From a virus (taxonomy: Duplodnaviria > Caudoviricetes): a stretch of 64,000 bases of DNA. The DNA is taken from the IMG/VR virus record IMGVR_UViG_3300034073_002120, one strand, 5' to 3'. Under the pieces are notes generated by a model. The model had not been told where the DNA came from and did not search any database. It saw nothing but the letters and a program-made list of their open reading frames with translations. Positions within the stretch are counted from its first letter, which is position 1. Each line of letters begins with the position of its first letter. Shown piece by piece: positions 7,285-45,562 of the stretch. A program made the position numbers and the translations under genes.

Positions 7285-8907
<1,623 letters not shown>

Positions 8908-8924: not shown

Positions 8925-8956
8925 CAAAGATACAAAATATTTTTGAAATTACCAAA
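8925..8956 (-). promoter_or_regulatory. Bacteroidota sigma-A type promoter for groEL
   Basis: TTTG-N20-TATCTTTG. Confidence 0.8.
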
Positions 8957-8959
8957 CAA

Positions 8960-8984
8960 AAATGGGAGAATTTTTCTCCCATTT
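8960..8984 (-). terminator. Intrinsic terminator after the TonB-dependent transporter
   Basis: 11-bp stem AAATGGGAGAA/TTCTCCCATTT with a 3-nt loop, followed by T-rich sequence on the minus strand. Confidence 0.8.
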
Positions 8985-9005: not shown

Positions 9006-12000
9006 TTATCTACCAAAGATATAACGAATACCTAATTGTGCAGACCATACATCAAATACTGATGAATTGTACTGATAAGTATCTCTAGCTAAGATAGTAG
9101 AACCATCTGCTAATTTTTGAGTTGCTAACTTATAAACTGGTTCACCATTTGTTGTAGTTGAATAGTTTAAGATAGTTGGAATAGTTGCTCTTTGAGAAAC
9201 ACCCCACTCATTATTTAATAAATTACCAAAGTTCAAAATATCAGCTCTGATTTGAATTGTATTCTTTTTACCTTTAACATTTACATAAATATCTTGTACA
9301 ACTGATAAATCGAATCTATGTAACATCGGTAAGAATGAACCATTTCTTTCAGCATATTGACCTCTACGAGATGATAAATATTTATCTTGTCCGATGTAAG
9401 AATCAAATGCTGCTTGTTGTTCAGCTTCAGTATATGTTCTTCCACCTGCAGTTAATGGTGCGAATTTAATATCAGAACCTTTTGATGGAACGAAAATTAA
9501 ATCATTACCTGCTATTCTATCACCATTCATATCACCACCGATTGTGTAAGAGAATGGGTTACCCTGATTTCCTACATAACCTAATGTGAATGAAGTTGCA
9601 CCACCCATACCTTTACCATATTCTAATCTATATCCTAACAAACCAACTAAACGATTTGGAGATAAAAAATTTGAATTAGATAAAGATAAATCGTTATTAC
9701 CATTTACACTTCTTGCACCTGTCCAACTACCTGAAGCGATTGAACCTGCACTCATAAAGTCTTTAGCATCTGATACCGTCCAAGCAAATGAACCGAACAC
9801 ACCTTTTTGGTAAGGATATTCTAATTTCAAAGTTAATGAACTGAATGATGCATCATTTGAATTAGTTAATACAATTGCGTTTGAAACATTACTATTTACT
9901 CTAACACTTGCATCAGTTCTACCATACATCGCTCTTGTATCAACACCTGCGAATATACCAGTTGGAACACCAAAGTTTGCGTTATAATAATGAACTGCAT
10001 TTAAGTTTTTATTTGTAATAAATTCTGCAGTACCGATGAACCCAAATGGTAATTTTTGGTCAATTGCGATATTAGATTTCCAAACTTGTGGGAACTTATA
10101 GTTCTCATCTGTAAATGCCAAATCAAATGTAGATGGTAAAGTTGGAGTTGATGGAATAAAGTATTTGTTAGGGTCAGCAGTGAAACCATATTTAGCTGCT
10201 GCAGCACCACTAGCATCAATATATCCTGTCAATACACCATTATTACCTACTTGATTTGAAATGAATACATATGGAGGTCTACCAGTGAATACACCTGTAC
10301 CACCTCTTAATTGTGTTTTTCTATCACCAAATACATCGTAGTTAAATCCGAAACGAGGTTCGAAAAGTGTTTGTGTTTTTGGTAATTTACCAGTATTAAA
10401 CTTTTGTCCACCTGCAAATGTCATCGCCGTTACTGCTGGGTTTTCTAATGCAGTTTGTTCGAATGAAATTACTGCAGCTCTTAAACCCAAAGTAAACTTT
10501 AAGTTTTCAGTTGCCTGATATTCATCTTGTCCGTAAATATCTAATCTATCAGTTTTCAAAGTTTGTAATGGTTCTGCTGCTCCTGGTAATGCCGAATAAC
10601 GGAATTGGAAACGAGCGGGTGTCAACGTAGAAGGTGCTCCACCATTTGCTAATGATTGATTAGCTGCGGTGTAGAAATCTGCTAAACTATTGAAAATATA
10701 AACACCATTAGATGCTGGGAAAAATAAGTTATTAGATTGATATTTCTCATAGTTAAAACCTAATGTCAAAGTGTGTTTATCTGCATACTTTGTTAAGTTG
10801 TTTGTAATATGGAAAGTATTGTAATCTAATTTATTTCCAGGTGTGAATGGGTCAAAACCTACTGCCGTAAGAGTTGTTGCTCCTTCTTTAATATCCACAG
10901 TTGGGAATACATTAGAAAGATAAGCTCTATTTTCAATTTGTTTATCATAACCAACAATTAAGTTATTATGTAAAGTGTTTGATAATTTAGAGTTTAATTC
11001 TAACACATAAGAACGTGTATTATCCATAATACCATAACCACTATTCTTAAAACTCATTGCTAATGCTGATTGAGTTCTATTACCAAATCCTGCTGAAGAA
11101 GAGTTTGAAATGTTAATTTCTGCTTCAGAATCGTGATGAACATAACGTGCGGTTAATTTATGTTTATCGTTGATGTTCCAATCCATACGAACTAAGAATT
11201 TCTTAGATGCGTTTGTGTTAGAATACCCTTCAAATGGACCAGTTGTGTAATTAAACTTATCTTGCATAAATTTAGATAAGTCTGATAATTGTGTATAAGT
11301 TGGTCTGCTAACTTGCGAACCTGTTAATGGAGAACCTGTTGAAATCCAATTTGTTCCTGGTTCAGTTTTCTCAATTTGTTCGTAGTTTCCAAAGATGAAT
11401 AATTTATTCTTAATGATTGGAGCACCCAAACGGAAACCTTGTACCTTCTCATCAAATTTAGATGCGGTTACTTTTGTTCCTCTTGCATTATCACCAACAT
11501 ATGTAGATGAATTGTTTCTTTGTGTTTGATATACCGAACCTTCAATTTCGTTTGTACCAGAACGAGTTACTGCATTGATACCAGCACCAGTAAATCCACT
11601 CTGACGAATATCGAAAGGTGCGATGTTTACTTGTAATTGCTCAATCGCATCTAATGAAATTGCCGATGCTCCGGTTCTACCACCAGCTTGTGCAGATGAA
11701 CCTAAACCGAATCCATTATTGAATTGAGAACCATCGATTGTAAAGTTATTCAAACGAGAATCTTGTGCTCCGAATGAGTTTCCGTTTCCGTTTGGATTGT
11801 ATTTAGTAATACCATCGATTGTTCTTGCTCCCGTAATTGGAATGTTTTGTAAATCTCTACGAGTGAATTGTTGAGATGCACCAGTTCTTTCTCTTGATAT
11901 AAGATTATTTCTACCGGCACTTACTACCACTTCTTTTAATGTAGTAGTTTCATCAACTAAAACAAAATCAACGTTTGTAGTAATACCCAATTGAGTATTC

Positions 12001-12275
12001 ACATCTTTGATTTCATCTTTTTTGTATCCTACATAAGTAGTGTGTAATACATATGGACCACCTACTCTAATTGCAGGTAAAACATATGCACCATTTTTGT
12101 TGGTTACAGCATTATACTGCGTACCGGTTGGGGTATGTACTGCGTGAATCGTAGCACCTACCAACACTTCATTTTTCTCGTTTTTCACAACACCTGAAAT
12201 TGAGGAAGTAGTAATCTGACTAAATCCAAAAAATGAGGTCATTGCGAAAAGTAACGATAAAATTAGTTTTTTCAT
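9006..12275 (-). CDS. TonB-dependent outer-membrane transporter (Oar-like, N-terminal carboxypeptidase-regulatory-like domain)
   Basis: Signal peptide MKKLILSLLFAMTSFFGFSQ (start 12275), plug motif NNFTIDG...QSGFTGAGINAVTRSGTN, beta-barrel, C-terminal LGIRYIF; 1089 aa, uninterrupted. Confidence 0.9.
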   Translation of the reverse strand: MKKLILSLLFAMTSFFGFSQITTSSISGVVKNEKNEVLVGATIHAVHTPTGTQYNAVTNKNGAYVLPAIRVGGPYVLHTTYVGYKKDEIKDVNTQLGITTNVDFVLVDETTTLKEVVVSAGRNNLISRERTGASQQFTRRDLQNIPITGARTIDGITKYNPNGNGNSFGAQDSRLNNFTIDGSQFNNGFGLGSSAQAGGRTGASAISLDAIEQLQVNIAPFDIRQSGFTGAGINAVTRSGTNEIEGSVYQTQRNNSSTYVGDNARGTKVTASKFDEKVQGFRLGAPIIKNKLFIFGNYEQIEKTEPGTNWISTGSPLTGSQVSRPTYTQLSDLSKFMQDKFNYTTGPFEGYSNTNASKKFLVRMDWNINDKHKLTARYVHHDSEAEINISNSSSAGFGNRTQSALAMSFKNSGYGIMDNTRSYVLELNSKLSNTLHNNLIVGYDKQIENRAYLSNVFPTVDIKEGATTLTAVGFDPFTPGNKLDYNTFHITNNLTKYADKHTLTLGFNYEKYQSNNLFFPASNGVYIFNSLADFYTAANQSLANGGAPSTLTPARFQFRYSALPGAAEPLQTLKTDRLDIYGQDEYQATENLKFTLGLRAAVISFEQTALENPAVTAMTFAGGQKFNTGKLPKTQTLFEPRFGFNYDVFGDRKTQLRGGTGVFTGRPPYVFISNQVGNNGVLTGYIDASGAAAAKYGFTADPNKYFIPSTPTLPSTFDLAFTDENYKFPQVWKSNIAIDQKLPFGFIGTAEFITNKNLNAVHYYNANFGVPTGIFAGVDTRAMYGRTDASVRVNSNVSNAIVLTNSNDASFSSLTLKLEYPYQKGVFGSFAWTVSDAKDFMSAGSIASGSWTGARSVNGNNDLSLSNSNFLSPNRLVGLLGYRLEYGKGMGGATSFTLGYVGNQGNPFSYTIGGDMNGDRIAGNDLIFVPSKGSDIKFAPLTAGGRTYTEAEQQAAFDSYIGQDKYLSSRRGQYAERNGSFLPMLHRFDLSVVQDIYVNVKGKKNTIQIRADILNFGNLLNNEWGVSQRATIPTILNYSTTTNGEPVYKLATQKLADGSTILARDTYQYNSSVFDVWSAQLGIRYIFGR

Positions 12276-12312
12276 AATTGTCCTTTTTTTGTTGTTAAAA
12301 ATTAAATAAACT

Positions 12313-12331
12313 ATTTGAGACCGTCTCAAAT
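12313..12331. promoter_or_regulatory. Perfect interrupted palindrome upstream of the transporter (operator or hairpin)
   Basis: ATTTGAGAC-C-GTCTCAAAT, 37 nt upstream of the ATG. Confidence 0.5.
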
Positions 12332-12352: not shown

Positions 12353-12595
12353 TTATTTATTCGAAAGTAATAATTCCTTATTAGGCACAAAGTCATCATC
12401 ACCACCAGTTGTATATGGTGGATTAAAATCATTTGTAAATGTAGGGGAATTAGTTCCATGTTCCGGTTTCCATTCACCGGTATCAACTTTGTTTAGGGTG
12501 TATTTGATAAACTCCCAATCTGATGGAGTTGGGATAGTATTTCCCAATCCTTGTGTAAAACCTCTCAACCAAAATATAAATTCGTTTGATGTCAT
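12353..12595 (-). CDS. Hypothetical protein
   Basis: 80-aa ORF co-oriented with its neighbours, filling the gap. Confidence 0.6.
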   Translation of the reverse strand: MTSNEFIFWLRGFTQGLGNTIPTPSDWEFIKYTLNKVDTGEWKPEHGTNSPTFTNDFNPPYTTGGDDDFVPNKELLLSNK

Positions 12596-12645
12596 TGTAG
12601 ATAAGTATTATATATATTTTATTTTTATATTACCAAATTGTTAAA

Positions 12646-14283
12646 TTATGGTTTATAGAAAACAAAGATTGGTTCAAACTTATATGCTTTACCATCATGT
12701 TTTACTGCGTTTTTAATACCTGTCTTAGTTGGGTCTAATCCCACCATTCTAGTCATCAACATCTTCAACTTACCTTTGTACTCACATCCCAATTCTTTAA
12801 GAATATCGATTGAATCTTGCTCTAATGCATAGTAAGTATCTTTACCGATTTTAATATCTGCAATATTCCAAAGAATGTATCTATCATTCTTCATATATTC
12901 GTAGATAGTTGTTAAAGTAGGACGTAAGAAATTATCTCTCCAATCATCATATTCACCATAAGCTTTGAAAGATTGATTCTCATCTTGTGAGTATTGTTCT
13001 CTATTAAAGTATGGAGGCGATGTGAAAGATATATCTAATTTACCTTTGTATTTTTGAAACTTAGGATTATGTTGAATTAACTCCGAACCATCTTGAAACA
13101 ACTCATATGTATTACCTTGTTTTTCTACATCAAAGAATTTGGTAAATGTTTCTGAAAAATCATCTACGCAATTATCATTATAGAATTTAGCTGCGTATTC
13201 ATAACGAGATATTCCCAACTCTTTAATAAAATTATCAGGGTTAGGGTCAGTTCCCACATAATGAGTTTTCTTTCTACTACTCATTGCACCTAAGATTCTA
13301 CCACCCCATCCACTTGATGAATCGTAAATATGAAGAGGTTCATCTTGTTCGATGTGTGATGTATAATTTTCGTAAATCCACTTAGCAGTTAATGCAGGGA
13401 AATTTACTGCAGGTTGTCCACAACTTAAACGAAATACTTGTAAGATTTTTGGGAATATACCAACTGTCTTATCATACCAACGAATTAGATAATAAAACTT
13501 TTTAGTTGTTTTACCATCTGCAAGTGTCATATGGTCTTCAATTGATTTAACGTTAGACATTTGAGTTGGGTTTAACCATCCCTTATCTACACATTCTTGT
13601 AATTGTTCTGCGTTTAAGTAAAGATTACCAAATCCAATATATTGTTCGTTAATAGTTCCGTAATTATCAATAGTATCTTCTTTTACTTTTGCAATTACAA
13701 TATCTAAATCAGAATGTTTACCTATAAAGATTTTACCTTCATATACTTTCTGAATGAACTCTACACCAGTTTCACCATCCCAAAATTCGTTCTCATCTTT
13801 TTTATTTACAATAGAACGTGACCAGGAATACATAGAATCTCTCTTAACTGCTCTACGCATGATTTTTACGAACACATCTTCTAAATTCGGGTCAGAAAAG
13901 TGGTCGTAAATAGATAATCCACCATCAGCAGATTTTCCAATTGAAATTTTAGTTTTCAACATCGTAGGGAAAAACTGATTGATTGCCGATGCATCCTTAT
14001 TAAAGTTTTGGATAATACCTAATGATTCTTCATCACCGGTTAAATCTTTTTGTAGGAAATCGCAATCATTTCCTTTTAATTTCTTAAAAGATTCGATAAT
14101 ACCATCCTTATCTTTACCGATAACAGGAGGTACACCATCTTCATCCCATTGCTTAGTTACTTCTTTACGCAATAACTTAGCCCAATTAATGAACTCATCA
14201 TCAGTCATTTGTAGTAACTGATGATAAGTTCTATTGGATTGGAATTCAGAAAATTTTGAACGTTCGTAATAGTATTTCGTCAT
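12646..14283 (-). CDS. SAM-dependent amino-methyltransferase-like protein (motif I then SPPY)
   Basis: YDSSSGWGGR SAM-binding motif followed by FTSPPYF; paralogue of 22929-24161. Confidence 0.8.
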   Translation of the reverse strand: MTKYYYERSKFSEFQSNRTYHQLLQMTDDEFINWAKLLRKEVTKQWDEDGVPPVIGKDKDGIIESFKKLKGNDCDFLQKDLTGDEESLGIIQNFNKDASAINQFFPTMLKTKISIGKSADGGLSIYDHFSDPNLEDVFVKIMRRAVKRDSMYSWSRSIVNKKDENEFWDGETGVEFIQKVYEGKIFIGKHSDLDIVIAKVKEDTIDNYGTINEQYIGFGNLYLNAEQLQECVDKGWLNPTQMSNVKSIEDHMTLADGKTTKKFYYLIRWYDKTVGIFPKILQVFRLSCGQPAVNFPALTAKWIYENYTSHIEQDEPLHIYDSSSGWGGRILGAMSSRKKTHYVGTDPNPDNFIKELGISRYEYAAKFYNDNCVDDFSETFTKFFDVEKQGNTYELFQDGSELIQHNPKFQKYKGKLDISFTSPPYFNREQYSQDENQSFKAYGEYDDWRDNFLRPTLTTIYEYMKNDRYILWNIADIKIGKDTYYALEQDSIDILKELGCEYKGKLKMLMTRMVGLDPTKTGIKNAVKHDGKAYKFEPIFVFYKP

Positions 14284-39568: not shown

Positions 39569-40210
39569 TTATTTAAATTTCAATCCTGTTAATTTTTCAA
39601 TATCCGAAACTAATACTTTGTTATTGTTTATTCCATCTGGTTTAGATAAATCATTCTGAAATAAATACGCGAACCATTCTTTTGTTTTTACTATATAAAC
39701 CACTTTCCAGCATTGTGTCGGAACTGCAACTTTATTTACACCTATTGTTTTAGCAACTCCAATATTTCCAGCCCAGATATGAACTGAATCTTGTTTCACT
39801 GCCCAATTTCGTGTAAGTGTTTCTAATGATTTCCAATCTCCGGCATTTAATCTATGATATTGTGCAGCCATATTAGAATAATAGAAACACTCATCTTGTA
39901 CCGCAGGAGTTTGACATTGATTTGATTTTGCAGGCATTAAATGACCTCTATCCGTTCCACTATTTACATAATCTGCACCAATATTTGTTTCTTTTGGTAA
40001 TAAAGGGTCGGGCTTGAATTTATCTTTACGAGGTAAAGGATTTGGACACCCAACTTTTGCTTTGGTTTCCCACCATTCTACCAATACCGGATATTTTTTT
40101 GATTTTGAAAAGTGTGATGTGTAATTTGTATGTTTTAGAACTACCACATCTTGTGCCTTAAGACCTAAGGCGAAACATAACACTAAAATTAGTGTAAAAA
40201 ATTTTTTCAT
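39569..40210 (-). CDS. Secreted DNA/RNA non-specific endonuclease (NucA / Endonuclease_NS)
   Basis: Signal peptide MKKFFTLILVLCFALGLKA, DRGHLMP active site, FYYSNMAAQ...LN...W. Confidence 0.9.
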   Translation of the reverse strand: MKKFFTLILVLCFALGLKAQDVVVLKHTNYTSHFSKSKKYPVLVEWWETKAKVGCPNPLPRKDKFKPDPLLPKETNIGADYVNSGTDRGHLMPAKSNQCQTPAVQDECFYYSNMAAQYHRLNAGDWKSLETLTRNWAVKQDSVHIWAGNIGVAKTIGVNKVAVPTQCWKVVYIVKTKEWFAYLFQNDLSKPDGINNNKVLVSDIEKLTGLKFK

Positions 40211-44788: not shown

Positions 44789-45562
44789 TTATTCTCCCCA
44801 ATATTTATTTCTTAAATCATATAATTCAATCGCTTCTCTCTTCATTTGATTACCTGGATGAAAATATGCTCCTTTTTTCAAATATCCACCTAAGAAATTT
44901 CTTCTCATTCTATTAGGGTCTCTATTTGGTTCTGAACCATGTACAACGTGTGAGTGTAAAAGTGCAACTTGTCCTTTTTTCAAATATCCCTCTACCTTAC
45001 GGAAATCATGGCCATCTGGCATTACACAACTTTTACCTCTTTCGCTTCTCCAGTTATCGGTATTAGTTGCTTTTCTTTCTTCATTATCTTCGATTGGTAA
45101 TACAGGTAATCTATGTGAACCTTCGTAGTTCCACACCGCTCCGTTTTCAGGGTCGTGATTATCTAATGCTAATGCAGTATTGATAATTTCATTATGTCCA
45201 CAACCGGTGTAGAATGCATTTTGATGTTGGTCACGTCCTAATTCACCTTTTGGTTTGTAGTATCCCCAAGTTTGTAAACCAACCACATCACCTTCCATAA
45301 GGAACTCACATGCTTCTAAAATTTTTGGATGGACAAATAATTTTTCAATTAATTCTGATTCTCTATGTGGATACATAATTGGTTCGAATTCTTGCCATTT
45401 TCCTGGTTCTTTTTCGTTTCGTTCTAAACGCAATCTATCTAATTCTGCGTTTACTTTATCAACTTCTTCTTCGGTAAGTAATTCTAATACAGTGAATCCG
45501 CGGTATCTCCAATCAAATGACATTTGTTGAAGTTCTTCTTGTGTAAGATGTTTGTAAGCCAT
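44789..45562 (-). CDS. PhyH (phytanoyl-CoA dioxygenase family) 2OG-Fe(II) oxygenase
   Basis: YYKPKG...HQN...ALD...NGA...GSH...HGSEPN...RR. Confidence 0.8.
   Translation of the reverse strand: MAYKHLTQEELQQMSFDWRYRGFTVLELLTEEEVDKVNAELDRLRLERNEKEPGKWQEFEPIMYPHRESELIEKLFVHPKILEACEFLMEGDVVGLQTWGYYKPKGELGRDQHQNAFYTGCGHNEIINTALALDNHDPENGAVWNYEGSHRLPVLPIEDNEERKATNTDNWRSERGKSCVMPDGHDFRKVEGYLKKGQVALLHSHVVHGSEPNRDPNRMRRNFLGGYLKKGAYFHPGNQMKREAIELYDLRNKYWGE

Follow-up and report, generated by a model that had tools for sequence, protein, structure and literature searches.

The transporter gene at 9006-12275 of the window (the whole 64,000-nucleotide stretch of phage DNA that was analysed) probably encodes an auxiliary importer of phosphorus compounds that would be run by the TonB of the host, a reading to which we assign a probability of about two in three. 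Its substrate could well be nucleic-acid fragments or nucleotides; other organic phosphoesters or polyphosphate are possible with a slightly lower chance, and free phosphate is doubtful. We compared the gene with its relatives in phages and bacteria, with published expression data for a bacterial orthologue and with the sequences that precede both.

The transporter gene and its transcript

The gene is an open reading frame of 1089 aa on the minus strand that begins with an ATG and contains no internal stop. An in-frame TTG upstream, at 12329, is an unlikely start because homologues begin at the equivalent ATG. The features of the region, all on the minus strand, were as follows.

7285-8904, minus: GroEL, the downstream neighbour, a separate unit with its own Bacteroidota-type promoter (TAnnTTTG at 8932)
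8960-8984, minus: intrinsic terminator of the transporter gene
9006-12275, minus: Oar-like (PF25183) stand-alone TonB-dependent transporter, 1089 aa, orthologue of Flavobacterium johnsoniae Fjoh_3841
9015-11543, minus: 22-stranded beta-barrel with long external loops, aa 245-1087
11556-11891, minus: plug domain, aa 129-240
11922-11939, minus: TonB-box-like motif LxEVVV, aa 113-118
11955-12218, minus: N-terminal extension, CarboxypepD_reg, aa 20-107
12219-12275, minus: predicted Sec-type signal peptide, aa 1-19
12313-12331, minus: leader hairpin (upstream palindrome)
12353-12595, minus: 80-aa ORF with a weak match to phrog_28500
12601-12608, minus: ATACTTAT motif, candidate phage promoter element
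12627-12646, minus: Pho-box-like repeat of 11-bp period before the window's operon, 8.7 bits
12646-14283, minus: methyltransferase-like phage gene, the upstream neighbour
39569-40210, minus: signal-peptide-bearing non-specific endonuclease (PF01223), possible substrate supplier

The first-pass annotation had described an intact TonB-dependent receptor with signal peptide, plug and barrel. This was borne out by Pfam, which placed CarboxypepD_reg (PF13620, 59.3 bits, E 5e-16) and the Oar-type barrel (PF25183, 182.6 bits, E 2e-53) above the cut-off, and by an AlphaFold model (pLDDT 86.6) in which an N-terminal plug closes a barrel of, by our count, 22 strands. The signal peptide was recognised from the sequence, and the mature protein would begin at the conserved Q20. 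The last strand of the barrel is aromatic and beta-signal-like. The LxEVVV motif, which we take to be the TonB box from what is generally known of Bacteroidota TonB-dependent transporters (TBDTs), is near-invariant in 58 phage copies and is kept, at the level of the motif only, in bacterial copies too.

The top Foldseek matches of the model in the PDB were all TBDTs, the best being FusA (4zgv) and YddB (6ofr) with a TM-score of ~0.5 by query and 11-13% identity, while no sequence-level relative was found in the PDB, NCBIfam or PHROGs. Just two unannotated records of the GenBank phage set matched the transporter, at best with 33% identity, and the sole full-barrel match among predicted viral structures was a SusC-type protein (11% identical). 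No gene for a SusD or DUF5689 lid lipoprotein was found beside the window's copy, and none recurred beside the phage, Sediminibacterium or F. johnsoniae copies.

The terminator ascribed earlier to the gene was confirmed as an 11-bp stem followed by a T-run (8984-8960, z -7.5), and an RNA-library contig stops nearby, at 8941. The palindrome reported upstream is likewise real, a perfect 9-bp inverted repeat (12331-12313). It behaves like an RNA hairpin, because the stem is retained and the centre altered in relatives L002 and L024, and because in the majority of the other phage copies this position is taken by a different hairpin rich in GC; on these grounds we rejected it as an operator. The flanking phage genes had been given as GroEL and a methyltransferase-like gene. 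GroEL does lie downstream and the methyltransferase-like gene upstream, but the 80-aa ORF, probably the first gene of the transporter's transcript, intervenes before the latter. The methyltransferase-like gene is found in relatives both with and without the transporter. Membership of a replication module was not upheld, the transporter gene being accessory and mobile among phages, and the label "lytic" has no support from the window.

GATC is absent from the window (0 observed, 240 expected) and from the transporter gene (0 observed, 11.4 expected). GAT accounts for 47 of the 52 Asp codons of the gene, yet both Asp-Pro pairs use GAC, in agreement with the GATC avoidance described for them before. 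Sediminibacterium orthologues contain 6-14 GATC, and across phages the count in the transporter tracks that of the flanking DNA. The long residence proposed from this avoidance finds support for the lineage, but the gene itself moves among phages.

Capture, exchange and selection in phages

The transporter occurs at 79 viral loci, spread over 13 gene neighbourhoods, on contigs of up to 324 kb, counts that overstate independence because the phage loci are mutually related. The carriers include complete genomes with terminal repeats in which the transporter is syntenic with phage genes, and close relatives have an empty site at its position, as do L165, L206 and L210 when set against the carrier L164. 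Contigs of relatives (91% identical) from four RNA libraries span the gene and join it to phage genes; having no silent-stretch control and possible DNA carry-over, they indicate presence only, and their depth cannot rank genes. Phages captured this family at least twice and swap its alleles. At locus L055 a plug-plus-barrel allele was exchanged between phage lineages by recombination, and the N-terminal extension recombines apart from plug and barrel. Copies from streamlined Sediminibacterium nest among the phage copies in the tree; the trees are affected by recombination and their support is SH-aLRT only.

The gene has the genomic features of an auxiliary metabolic gene: it is intact, host-derived, flanked by viral genes and under purifying selection (dN/dS 0.03-0.15). 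The nearest bacterial copies of the window's transporter are 74-76% identical to it, which could suit a neutral passenger or an assembly chimera. The chimera is already refuted, the chimeric host insert raised as a check in the first-pass annotation being excluded by the 79 viral loci and by the RNA-library contigs. The passenger is extremely improbable given complete genomes, conserved synteny, a GATC depletion that matches each phage and the selection on the gene.

TBDTs are common phage receptors, and the phage copy might replace, mask or mimic a receptor of the host, for exclusion or as a decoy in vesicles or lysate. The exchange of plug-plus-barrel alleles, the accessory status of the gene and the other envelope genes of transporter-bearing phages would agree with such a role. 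However, variation in the external loops (dN/dS 0.02-0.20) does not exceed that seen in bacteria, loops L5 and L7 have changed less than the barrel strands, and the strongest constraint falls on the retained plug (mean identity 90% among phage copies, dN/dS <=0.06) and TonB box. Diversifying surface loops, an indirect sign of superinfection exclusion, were looked for in the phage copies and not found. An intact added receptor would also be more likely to invite superinfection than to block it, and in phosphate-replete F. johnsoniae the orthologue of the captured gene is hardly expressed (PMC8115612). We consider a receptor-related role unlikely, and the exclusion or decoy function suggested earlier received no direct support.

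Phosphate starvation and the Pho-box-like repeat

The best F. johnsoniae match to the phage transporter has a full-length identity of 61-62%, the next best one of 32%. Counting ORFs from six Pfam-confirmed anchors identified it as Fjoh_3841 (A5FD66), whose mass agrees (119.947 against 119.95 kDa), as do those of two neighbours. Orthology is indicated by the best match in the genome (a one-way match), by a tree position apart from the paralogues and by the exact mass. In the tree, Fjoh_3841 belongs to the group that is sister to the phage clade; it has the PF13620 and PF25183 domains of the phage protein and lacks a SusD partner. Fjoh_0736 (942 aa, no BLAST similarity to the phage transporter) was rejected as the orthologue.

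Phosphate depletion increased Fjoh_3841 by log2 7.69 in RNA, 8.44 in the cell proteome and 8.34 in the exoproteome, with 44-47 peptides in the three phosphate-depleted samples and 0-2 in the other nine (PMC8115612). This increase of about 200-fold was caused by phosphate depletion only, not by iron or nitrogen depletion, and under iron limitation the protein was not detected above background (PMC8115612). The induction was observed in one bacterium, at 61% identity to the phage protein. The plant-associated Bacteroidota strains of that study lack PstSABC (PMC8115612). Of the auxiliary uptake proposed at first, the phosphate and nucleic-acid solutes gained support from this induction and from the Pho-box-like repeat of the orthologues and many phage copies, while metal uptake is disfavoured because of the iron-limitation result.

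Import of a non-phosphorus solute (a vitamin, a nucleoside or NAD precursor, a peptide or a metal complex), with a Pho-type box merely inherited, was also considered. An AAA_28 kinase-like gene lies near the transporter in 19 loci, some bacterial homologues adjoin ribBA or housekeeping genes, and FusA, an importer of ferredoxin, is with YddB the nearest solved fold, at low identity. The phosphate-specific induction speaks against it, as do the absence of riboswitches in an Rfam search of the DNA preceding seven bacterial homologues and the bacterial gene neighbours, which differ by lineage. We regard such a solute as a shade less probable still than a receptor role.

The repeat TTAAC-N6-TTAAC, at a period of 11 only, precedes 28 of 48 close bacterial orthologues compared with 12 of 250 other genes. 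A matrix trained on these orthologues scored phoB at 12.7, oprP at 12.6, Fjoh_0546 at 15.9 and Fjoh_0549 at 12.6 bits, while 4 of 90 control genes reached at least 10 bits; the repeat marks the phoB operon as well as the bacterial transporter orthologues. Also in favour of a phosphorus role, PhoD, PhoH and an exported protein with a DUF5689 domain are among the bacterial neighbours. Scores of at least 10 bits were obtained for 14 of 59 phage copies compared with 4 of 400 other phage genes, and a strong box is missing within 320 nt of the remaining 45 copies. The transporter is present and the box absent in L006/L164. The box in the window scores modestly, with 7 sites at or above 8.5 bits on the coding strand of the 64 kb, and L007, L038 and L077 have stronger ones; the window's box is kept in five transporter-bearing relatives and missing in four transporter-lacking ones. 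Motifs similar to ATACTTAT come after the repeat in other phage lineages. The box alone does not prove starvation-specific control, because Fjoh_0736, which is unrelated, has one just as good but is plentiful in rich medium and varies by no more than ~2-fold.

The PF01223 nuclease adjoins the transporter in three other phage neighbourhoods and lies directly downstream or one gene away at 14 loci. It occurs in 9 of 10 complete carriers and in the complete non-carrier G026, and was therefore rejected as an obligate partner; PhoH, also present in a transporter-lacking genome, was rejected as a tied partner. The Oar protein of Myxococcus is reportedly an export channel for the protease PopC, and the phage protein, of the same Pfam barrel family (UniRef names a Flavobacterium homologue Oar), might likewise export the nearby nuclease or other periplasmic phage proteins. 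Export is, to our knowledge, a single reported case in this family and the nuclease also occurs without the transporter, so we find this very unlikely.

Three transporter-bearing genomes also encode another importer, a relative of the Pi-induced Fjoh_0545, and in two of them a Fjoh_0546-like lipoprotein was seen as well; the importer pair of G007 falls within 5 kb. When viral contigs were scanned for the patterns of Fjoh_0545, Fjoh_0736, the Sediminibacterium paralogue and a Sediminibacterium SusC, no matches appeared, but such scans detect nothing beyond close relatives and had overlooked the Fjoh_0545 relatives found otherwise, so that they are not evidence of absence.

Proposed function and comparison with known systems

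For the preferred reading, import of phosphorus compounds, we propose that the phage lineage took up an outer-membrane importer from the Pho regulon of Bacteroidota. In the infected cell, the transporter would be exported by the host Sec system, inserted by the host BAM and energised by the host TonB-ExbBD, host TonB being invoked because no phage-encoded TonB was found in 13 records. A phosphorus solute would then cross the outer membrane and supply nucleotide synthesis for a genome of 200-320 kb in phosphate-poor lakes. In many lineages, probably that of the window included, the observed motif would be bound as a host PhoB-type box that lifts expression under starvation. A wider and decidedly tentative proposal, which we hold to be improbable as a whole, is that freshwater Bacteroidota jumbo phages share a recombining pool of host-PhoB-controlled importers, that these harvest external nucleic-acid phosphorus together with the secreted nuclease, and that the pool returned the gene to streamlined Sediminibacterium lineages.

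The products of the phage phosphorus genes known to date act mostly in the periplasm or cytoplasm. That abundant lake phages have kept a complete, energised importer of the outer membrane after at least two captures points to the outer membrane as the bottleneck of phosphorus supply in infected Bacteroidota and connects viral replication with the lake phosphorus cycle. Substrate and complementation could be assayed without phage culture by way of Fjoh_3841, F. johnsoniae being genetically tractable, and a widespread Oar-like clade of Bacteroidota would gain its first function. The Sediminibacterium copies are a candidate case of a nutrient-uptake gene going back from phage to host.

Our literature search, in an incomplete library, gave no description of this transporter gene in phages; TBDTs are listed in prophages of ammonia oxidisers (10.64898/2026.05.02.722434). 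The freshwater Bacteroidetes jumbo myoviruses that encode bS21 resemble the present phages in bS21, size class and habitat, and the main text on them does not mention a transporter or receptor (PMC9723584). Here bS21 is encoded by G001, which is closely related to the window (83-99% identity for most flanking proteins), and by 8 other related records, while some transporter carriers lack it. DdbC (BT3560) and the DNA-uptake TBDT of Riemerella are linked to secreted nucleases and the use of external DNA (10.1101/2025.03.18.642099, PMC8851478). The phage gene is similarly a Bacteroidota TBDT that adjoins a secreted nuclease in three neighbourhoods; unlike DdbC, its copies have no adjacent DUF5689 gene, and the nuclease context differs and is not tied to the transporter. 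The likeness to FusA and YddB is one of fold only and says nothing on substrate. Fjoh_3841 shares with the phage gene its full-length similarity, both domains, the lack of SusD and an upstream Pho-box-like repeat, whereas the phage copy is GATC-free and joined to a candidate phage promoter motif.

Cyanophages carry the phosphorus-acquisition genes pstS, phoA and phoH, some of them under host PhoR/PhoB control. As in those phages, a host-derived phosphate-stress gene has been kept by the phage, apparently with the phosphate switch of the host, but here the hosts are Bacteroidota and the product, instead of being an enzyme or a binding protein of the periplasm, is an energised transporter of 120 kDa in the outer membrane.

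The transporter gene and its carriers

The window comes from a large myovirus-like genome (B-family polymerase, clamp loader, helicase, RecA, ribonucleotide reductase, tail sheath), and almost all of its genes lie on the minus strand. One was annotated at first pass as a full-length TonB-dependent transporter:

9006-12275, minus strand: transporter ORF of 1089 aa; signal-like N-terminus, then a CarboxypepD_reg extension, then an Oar-type barrel

The ORF and its domains bore this out, as did an AlphaFold model (pLDDT 86.6; plug and barrel, 22 strands counted) whose top structural matches were TonB-dependent transporters without exception. The terminator (8984-8960) and upstream palindrome (9-bp inverted repeat, 12331-12313) claimed for the gene are real, and the claimed GATC avoidance is complete, with 0 sites against 11.4 expected in the gene and 0 against 240 in the window. 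The methyltransferase-like gene claimed as a flank is indeed a phage neighbour, but an 80-aa ORF separates it from the transporter. Among other tetranucleotides of the window, GCGC is absent (0 against 12 expected), and CTAG, GTAC and CATG fall to 0.30-0.37 of expectation.

In IMG/VR, at least 79 loci carry the transporter, on contigs of up to 324 kb; among the loci listed, 72 show 70-96% identity and 7 show 38-39%. When L046, which may be non-viral, is set aside, the listed loci fall into 13 neighbourhood types, and the gene order of the window recurs in L001, L002, L024, L035 and L055. The gene is present in L164 while the same site is empty in L165, L206 and L210, and it is missing from the complete 288-kb phage genome G026, whose polymerase is 92% identical. 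The transporter is a true phage gene, and an accessory one. Its GATC count tracks that of its flanks in each phage, and copies in Sediminibacterium hold 6-14 GATC. Contigs of relatives about 91% identical were found in four RNA libraries, which suggests that the gene is transcribed in them; one such contig, of 4.1 kb, spans the entire gene and continues into upstream phage genes, so that the chimeric host insert considered in the first-pass annotation is excluded, and a passenger or artefact is scarcely credible. Because several carriers encode bS21, they can be placed close to the Bacteroidetes phages described in PMC9723584, the main text of which mentions no transporter.

The GroEL gene (window:7285-8904) is likewise accessory and mobile, L166-L168 and L171-L174 having a 59-60%-identical GroEL elsewhere or none in the region. 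L123 (CAYNGR010000116.1), filed in a Cyanobium MAG, is probably a mis-binned phage fragment, because it has phage-type neighbours and no GATC.

Selection and exchange between phages and bacteria

Comparison of phage alleles gave dN/dS of 0.03-0.15 over the gene as a whole; the plug did not exceed 0.06 and the external loops gave 0.02-0.20, a range equal to that among bacterial alleles. The TonB-box-like LxEVVV is near-invariant. No excess loop variability was seen in phage transporters relative to Sediminibacterium copies, and a role as receptor or in exclusion is improbable. The alleles recombine between phages: in L055 the flanks and N-terminus are window-like, but the plug and barrel are those of another phage group.

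The closest bacterial copies are those of freshwater Sediminibacterium (74-76%), followed by Flavobacteriaceae (56-63%). In our trees the Sediminibacterium copies were nested within the phage radiation, the basal branches were phage-only, and phage monophyly was rejected (p-AU 4e-8). A full phage-type allele was found in only 5 of 61 relatives of one Sediminibacterium genome, all five of 1.6-2.0 Mb; one further relative had a phage-type fragment, and most others had the 31-43% type or none found. The simplest reading would be a return from phage to host, its direction subject to recombination and unsampled donors. A second phage clade (L070, L073-L079) originated in a different Chitinophagaceae-type copy, one located downstream of phoH, and phages have therefore captured the family at least twice.

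The bacterial orthologue and a Pho-box-like repeat

In the F. johnsoniae genome (6,096,872 bp), the best match to the transporter was full-length at 61-62% identity, the runner-up reaching 32%. It was located by counting ORFs back from Pfam-confirmed anchors of PMC8115612 (ECF sigma 3859, FecR 3858, TBDT 3857, T9SS-tail 3855, S41 3853, polyphosphate-kinase-like 3851). The count ends at Fjoh_3841, whose computed mass is 119.947 kDa against 119.95 kDa in the supplement; the masses of 3840 and 3843 agree too. According to PMC8115612, which used iron and nitrogen limitation as its controls, phosphate depletion induces the orphan TBDT Fjoh_3841 (log2 7.69 in RNA, 8.44 in the cell proteome, 8.34 in the exoproteome), and such transporters are proposed to import organic phosphorus. 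Import of another solute is a rather unlikely alternative.

The repeat TTAAC-N6-TTAAC lies upstream of 28 of 48 close bacterial orthologues versus 12 of 250 neighbouring genes, with period 11 only, and in Flavobacterium it immediately precedes the -7 promoter element. A matrix trained solely on sites before bacterial orthologues gave 8.3-15.9 bits in F. johnsoniae for phoB, oprP, Fjoh_0545, 0546 and 0549, whereas of 90 control genes 4 reached 10 bits or more; we therefore infer that the repeat is a putative Bacteroidota Pho box, of which no published description was found in the literature searched. Scores were lower for a phytase-linked TBDT (6.0) and one of two endA genes (3.9). A caveat is Fjoh_0736, a 942-aa protein of the pgi locus unrelated to the transporter, which has nearly the same promoter as the Oar-like gene elsewhere, yet is plentiful in rich medium, its level shifting only about 2-fold in the first of the fold-change columns, taken as phosphate (PMC8115612). 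After pgi, L241:13560-16388 holds Fjoh_0736 with the box, and other Flavobacteria hold an Oar-like gene (L233:7791-11105, L097); unrelated transporters thus appear to have been swapped at one promoter.

Within 320 nt of phage copies, sites of at least 10 bits were found in 14 of 59, in several lineages; the corresponding figures were 4 of 400 for other phage genes and 2.4% for shuffles. The window's site (8.7 bits) precedes the 80-aa ORF and is followed by ATACTTAT; the equivalent site scores 8.7-10.4 bits in five carriers and below zero in four non-carriers and the carrier L006/L164.

Gene neighbours and the proposed import of phosphorus

Two features bear on the company kept by the transporter:

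window 39569-40210: secreted non-specific nuclease, NucA-type, signal-peptide-bearing
L255:4922-8373, L256:3926-7377, L257:1-1615: second phage importer, a 750-aa TBDT plus a 400-aa Fjoh_0546-like lipoprotein

In 14 loci, drawn from three neighbourhood types, the nuclease immediately follows the transporter or is one gene off; it occurs in 9 of 10 complete carriers, yet also in the non-carrier G026. Its two subtypes, of 200 and 211 aa, interchange at one site among related phages. A second importer related to Fjoh_0545 occurs in the phage genomes G004, G007 and G013, all of which also have the Oar-like gene; in G004 and G007 a lipoprotein with 35-37% identity to Fjoh_0546 comes after it, and the G007 copy is less than 5 kb from the Oar-like gene. 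TonB was not found in 13 phage records. In bacteria the transporter's neighbours are variable, with PhoD in one Flavobacterium and, in Saprospiraceae, an exported protein weakly matching DUF5689, for which the role of DNA-binding lid in the Bacteroides ddb system has been proposed.

Further phage TBDT-like ORFs, with open frames of 606-932 aa, occur in L250, L251 (directly after the clamp-loader gene) and L254; Pho-box-like sites scoring about 11 bits accompany two of them. An AAA_28 kinase-like gene (window:5764-6309) is near the transporter in 19 loci, which span four neighbourhood types and take in the second clade, the one captured independently. In L030-L034, L054 and L058, a 148-aa exported, outer-membrane-barrel-like protein with no Pfam match lies just upstream, and in several of these a DoxX-like membrane protein lies downstream. 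A block of exported or membrane genes (CsgG-like and others) is common to several of these phages (L228:3171-6868, L255:4145-9742, L257:3008-5993). The window's phage genes also include a Twitch-domain radical SAM gene (NF033640; 2508-3752) and, by eye, a phytanoyl-CoA-dioxygenase-like ORF (44789-45562).

In phages the transporter is intact, stably kept and under selection; it is the orthologue of a protein of phosphate starvation, and a Pho-type repeat often precedes it. The first-pass annotation had offered auxiliary uptake, or superinfection exclusion or a receptor decoy; uptake was supported, for phosphorus, by the Fjoh_3841 orthology and the Pho-type repeats, while exclusion gained no direct support and is kept as an improbable rival. 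Service as an export channel is very unlikely. We favour, with a probability of about two in three, an auxiliary importer of phosphorus compounds run by host machinery: the protein would be exported by host Sec, inserted by host BAM and energized by host TonB, a phosphorus compound would cross the outer membrane, and replication of the phage genome would benefit.

Phage genes for phosphorus acquisition are already known, but the literature searched contained no description of an outer-membrane importer of the Oar type, from the Bacteroidota Pho regulon, that occurs widely among lake jumbo phages.
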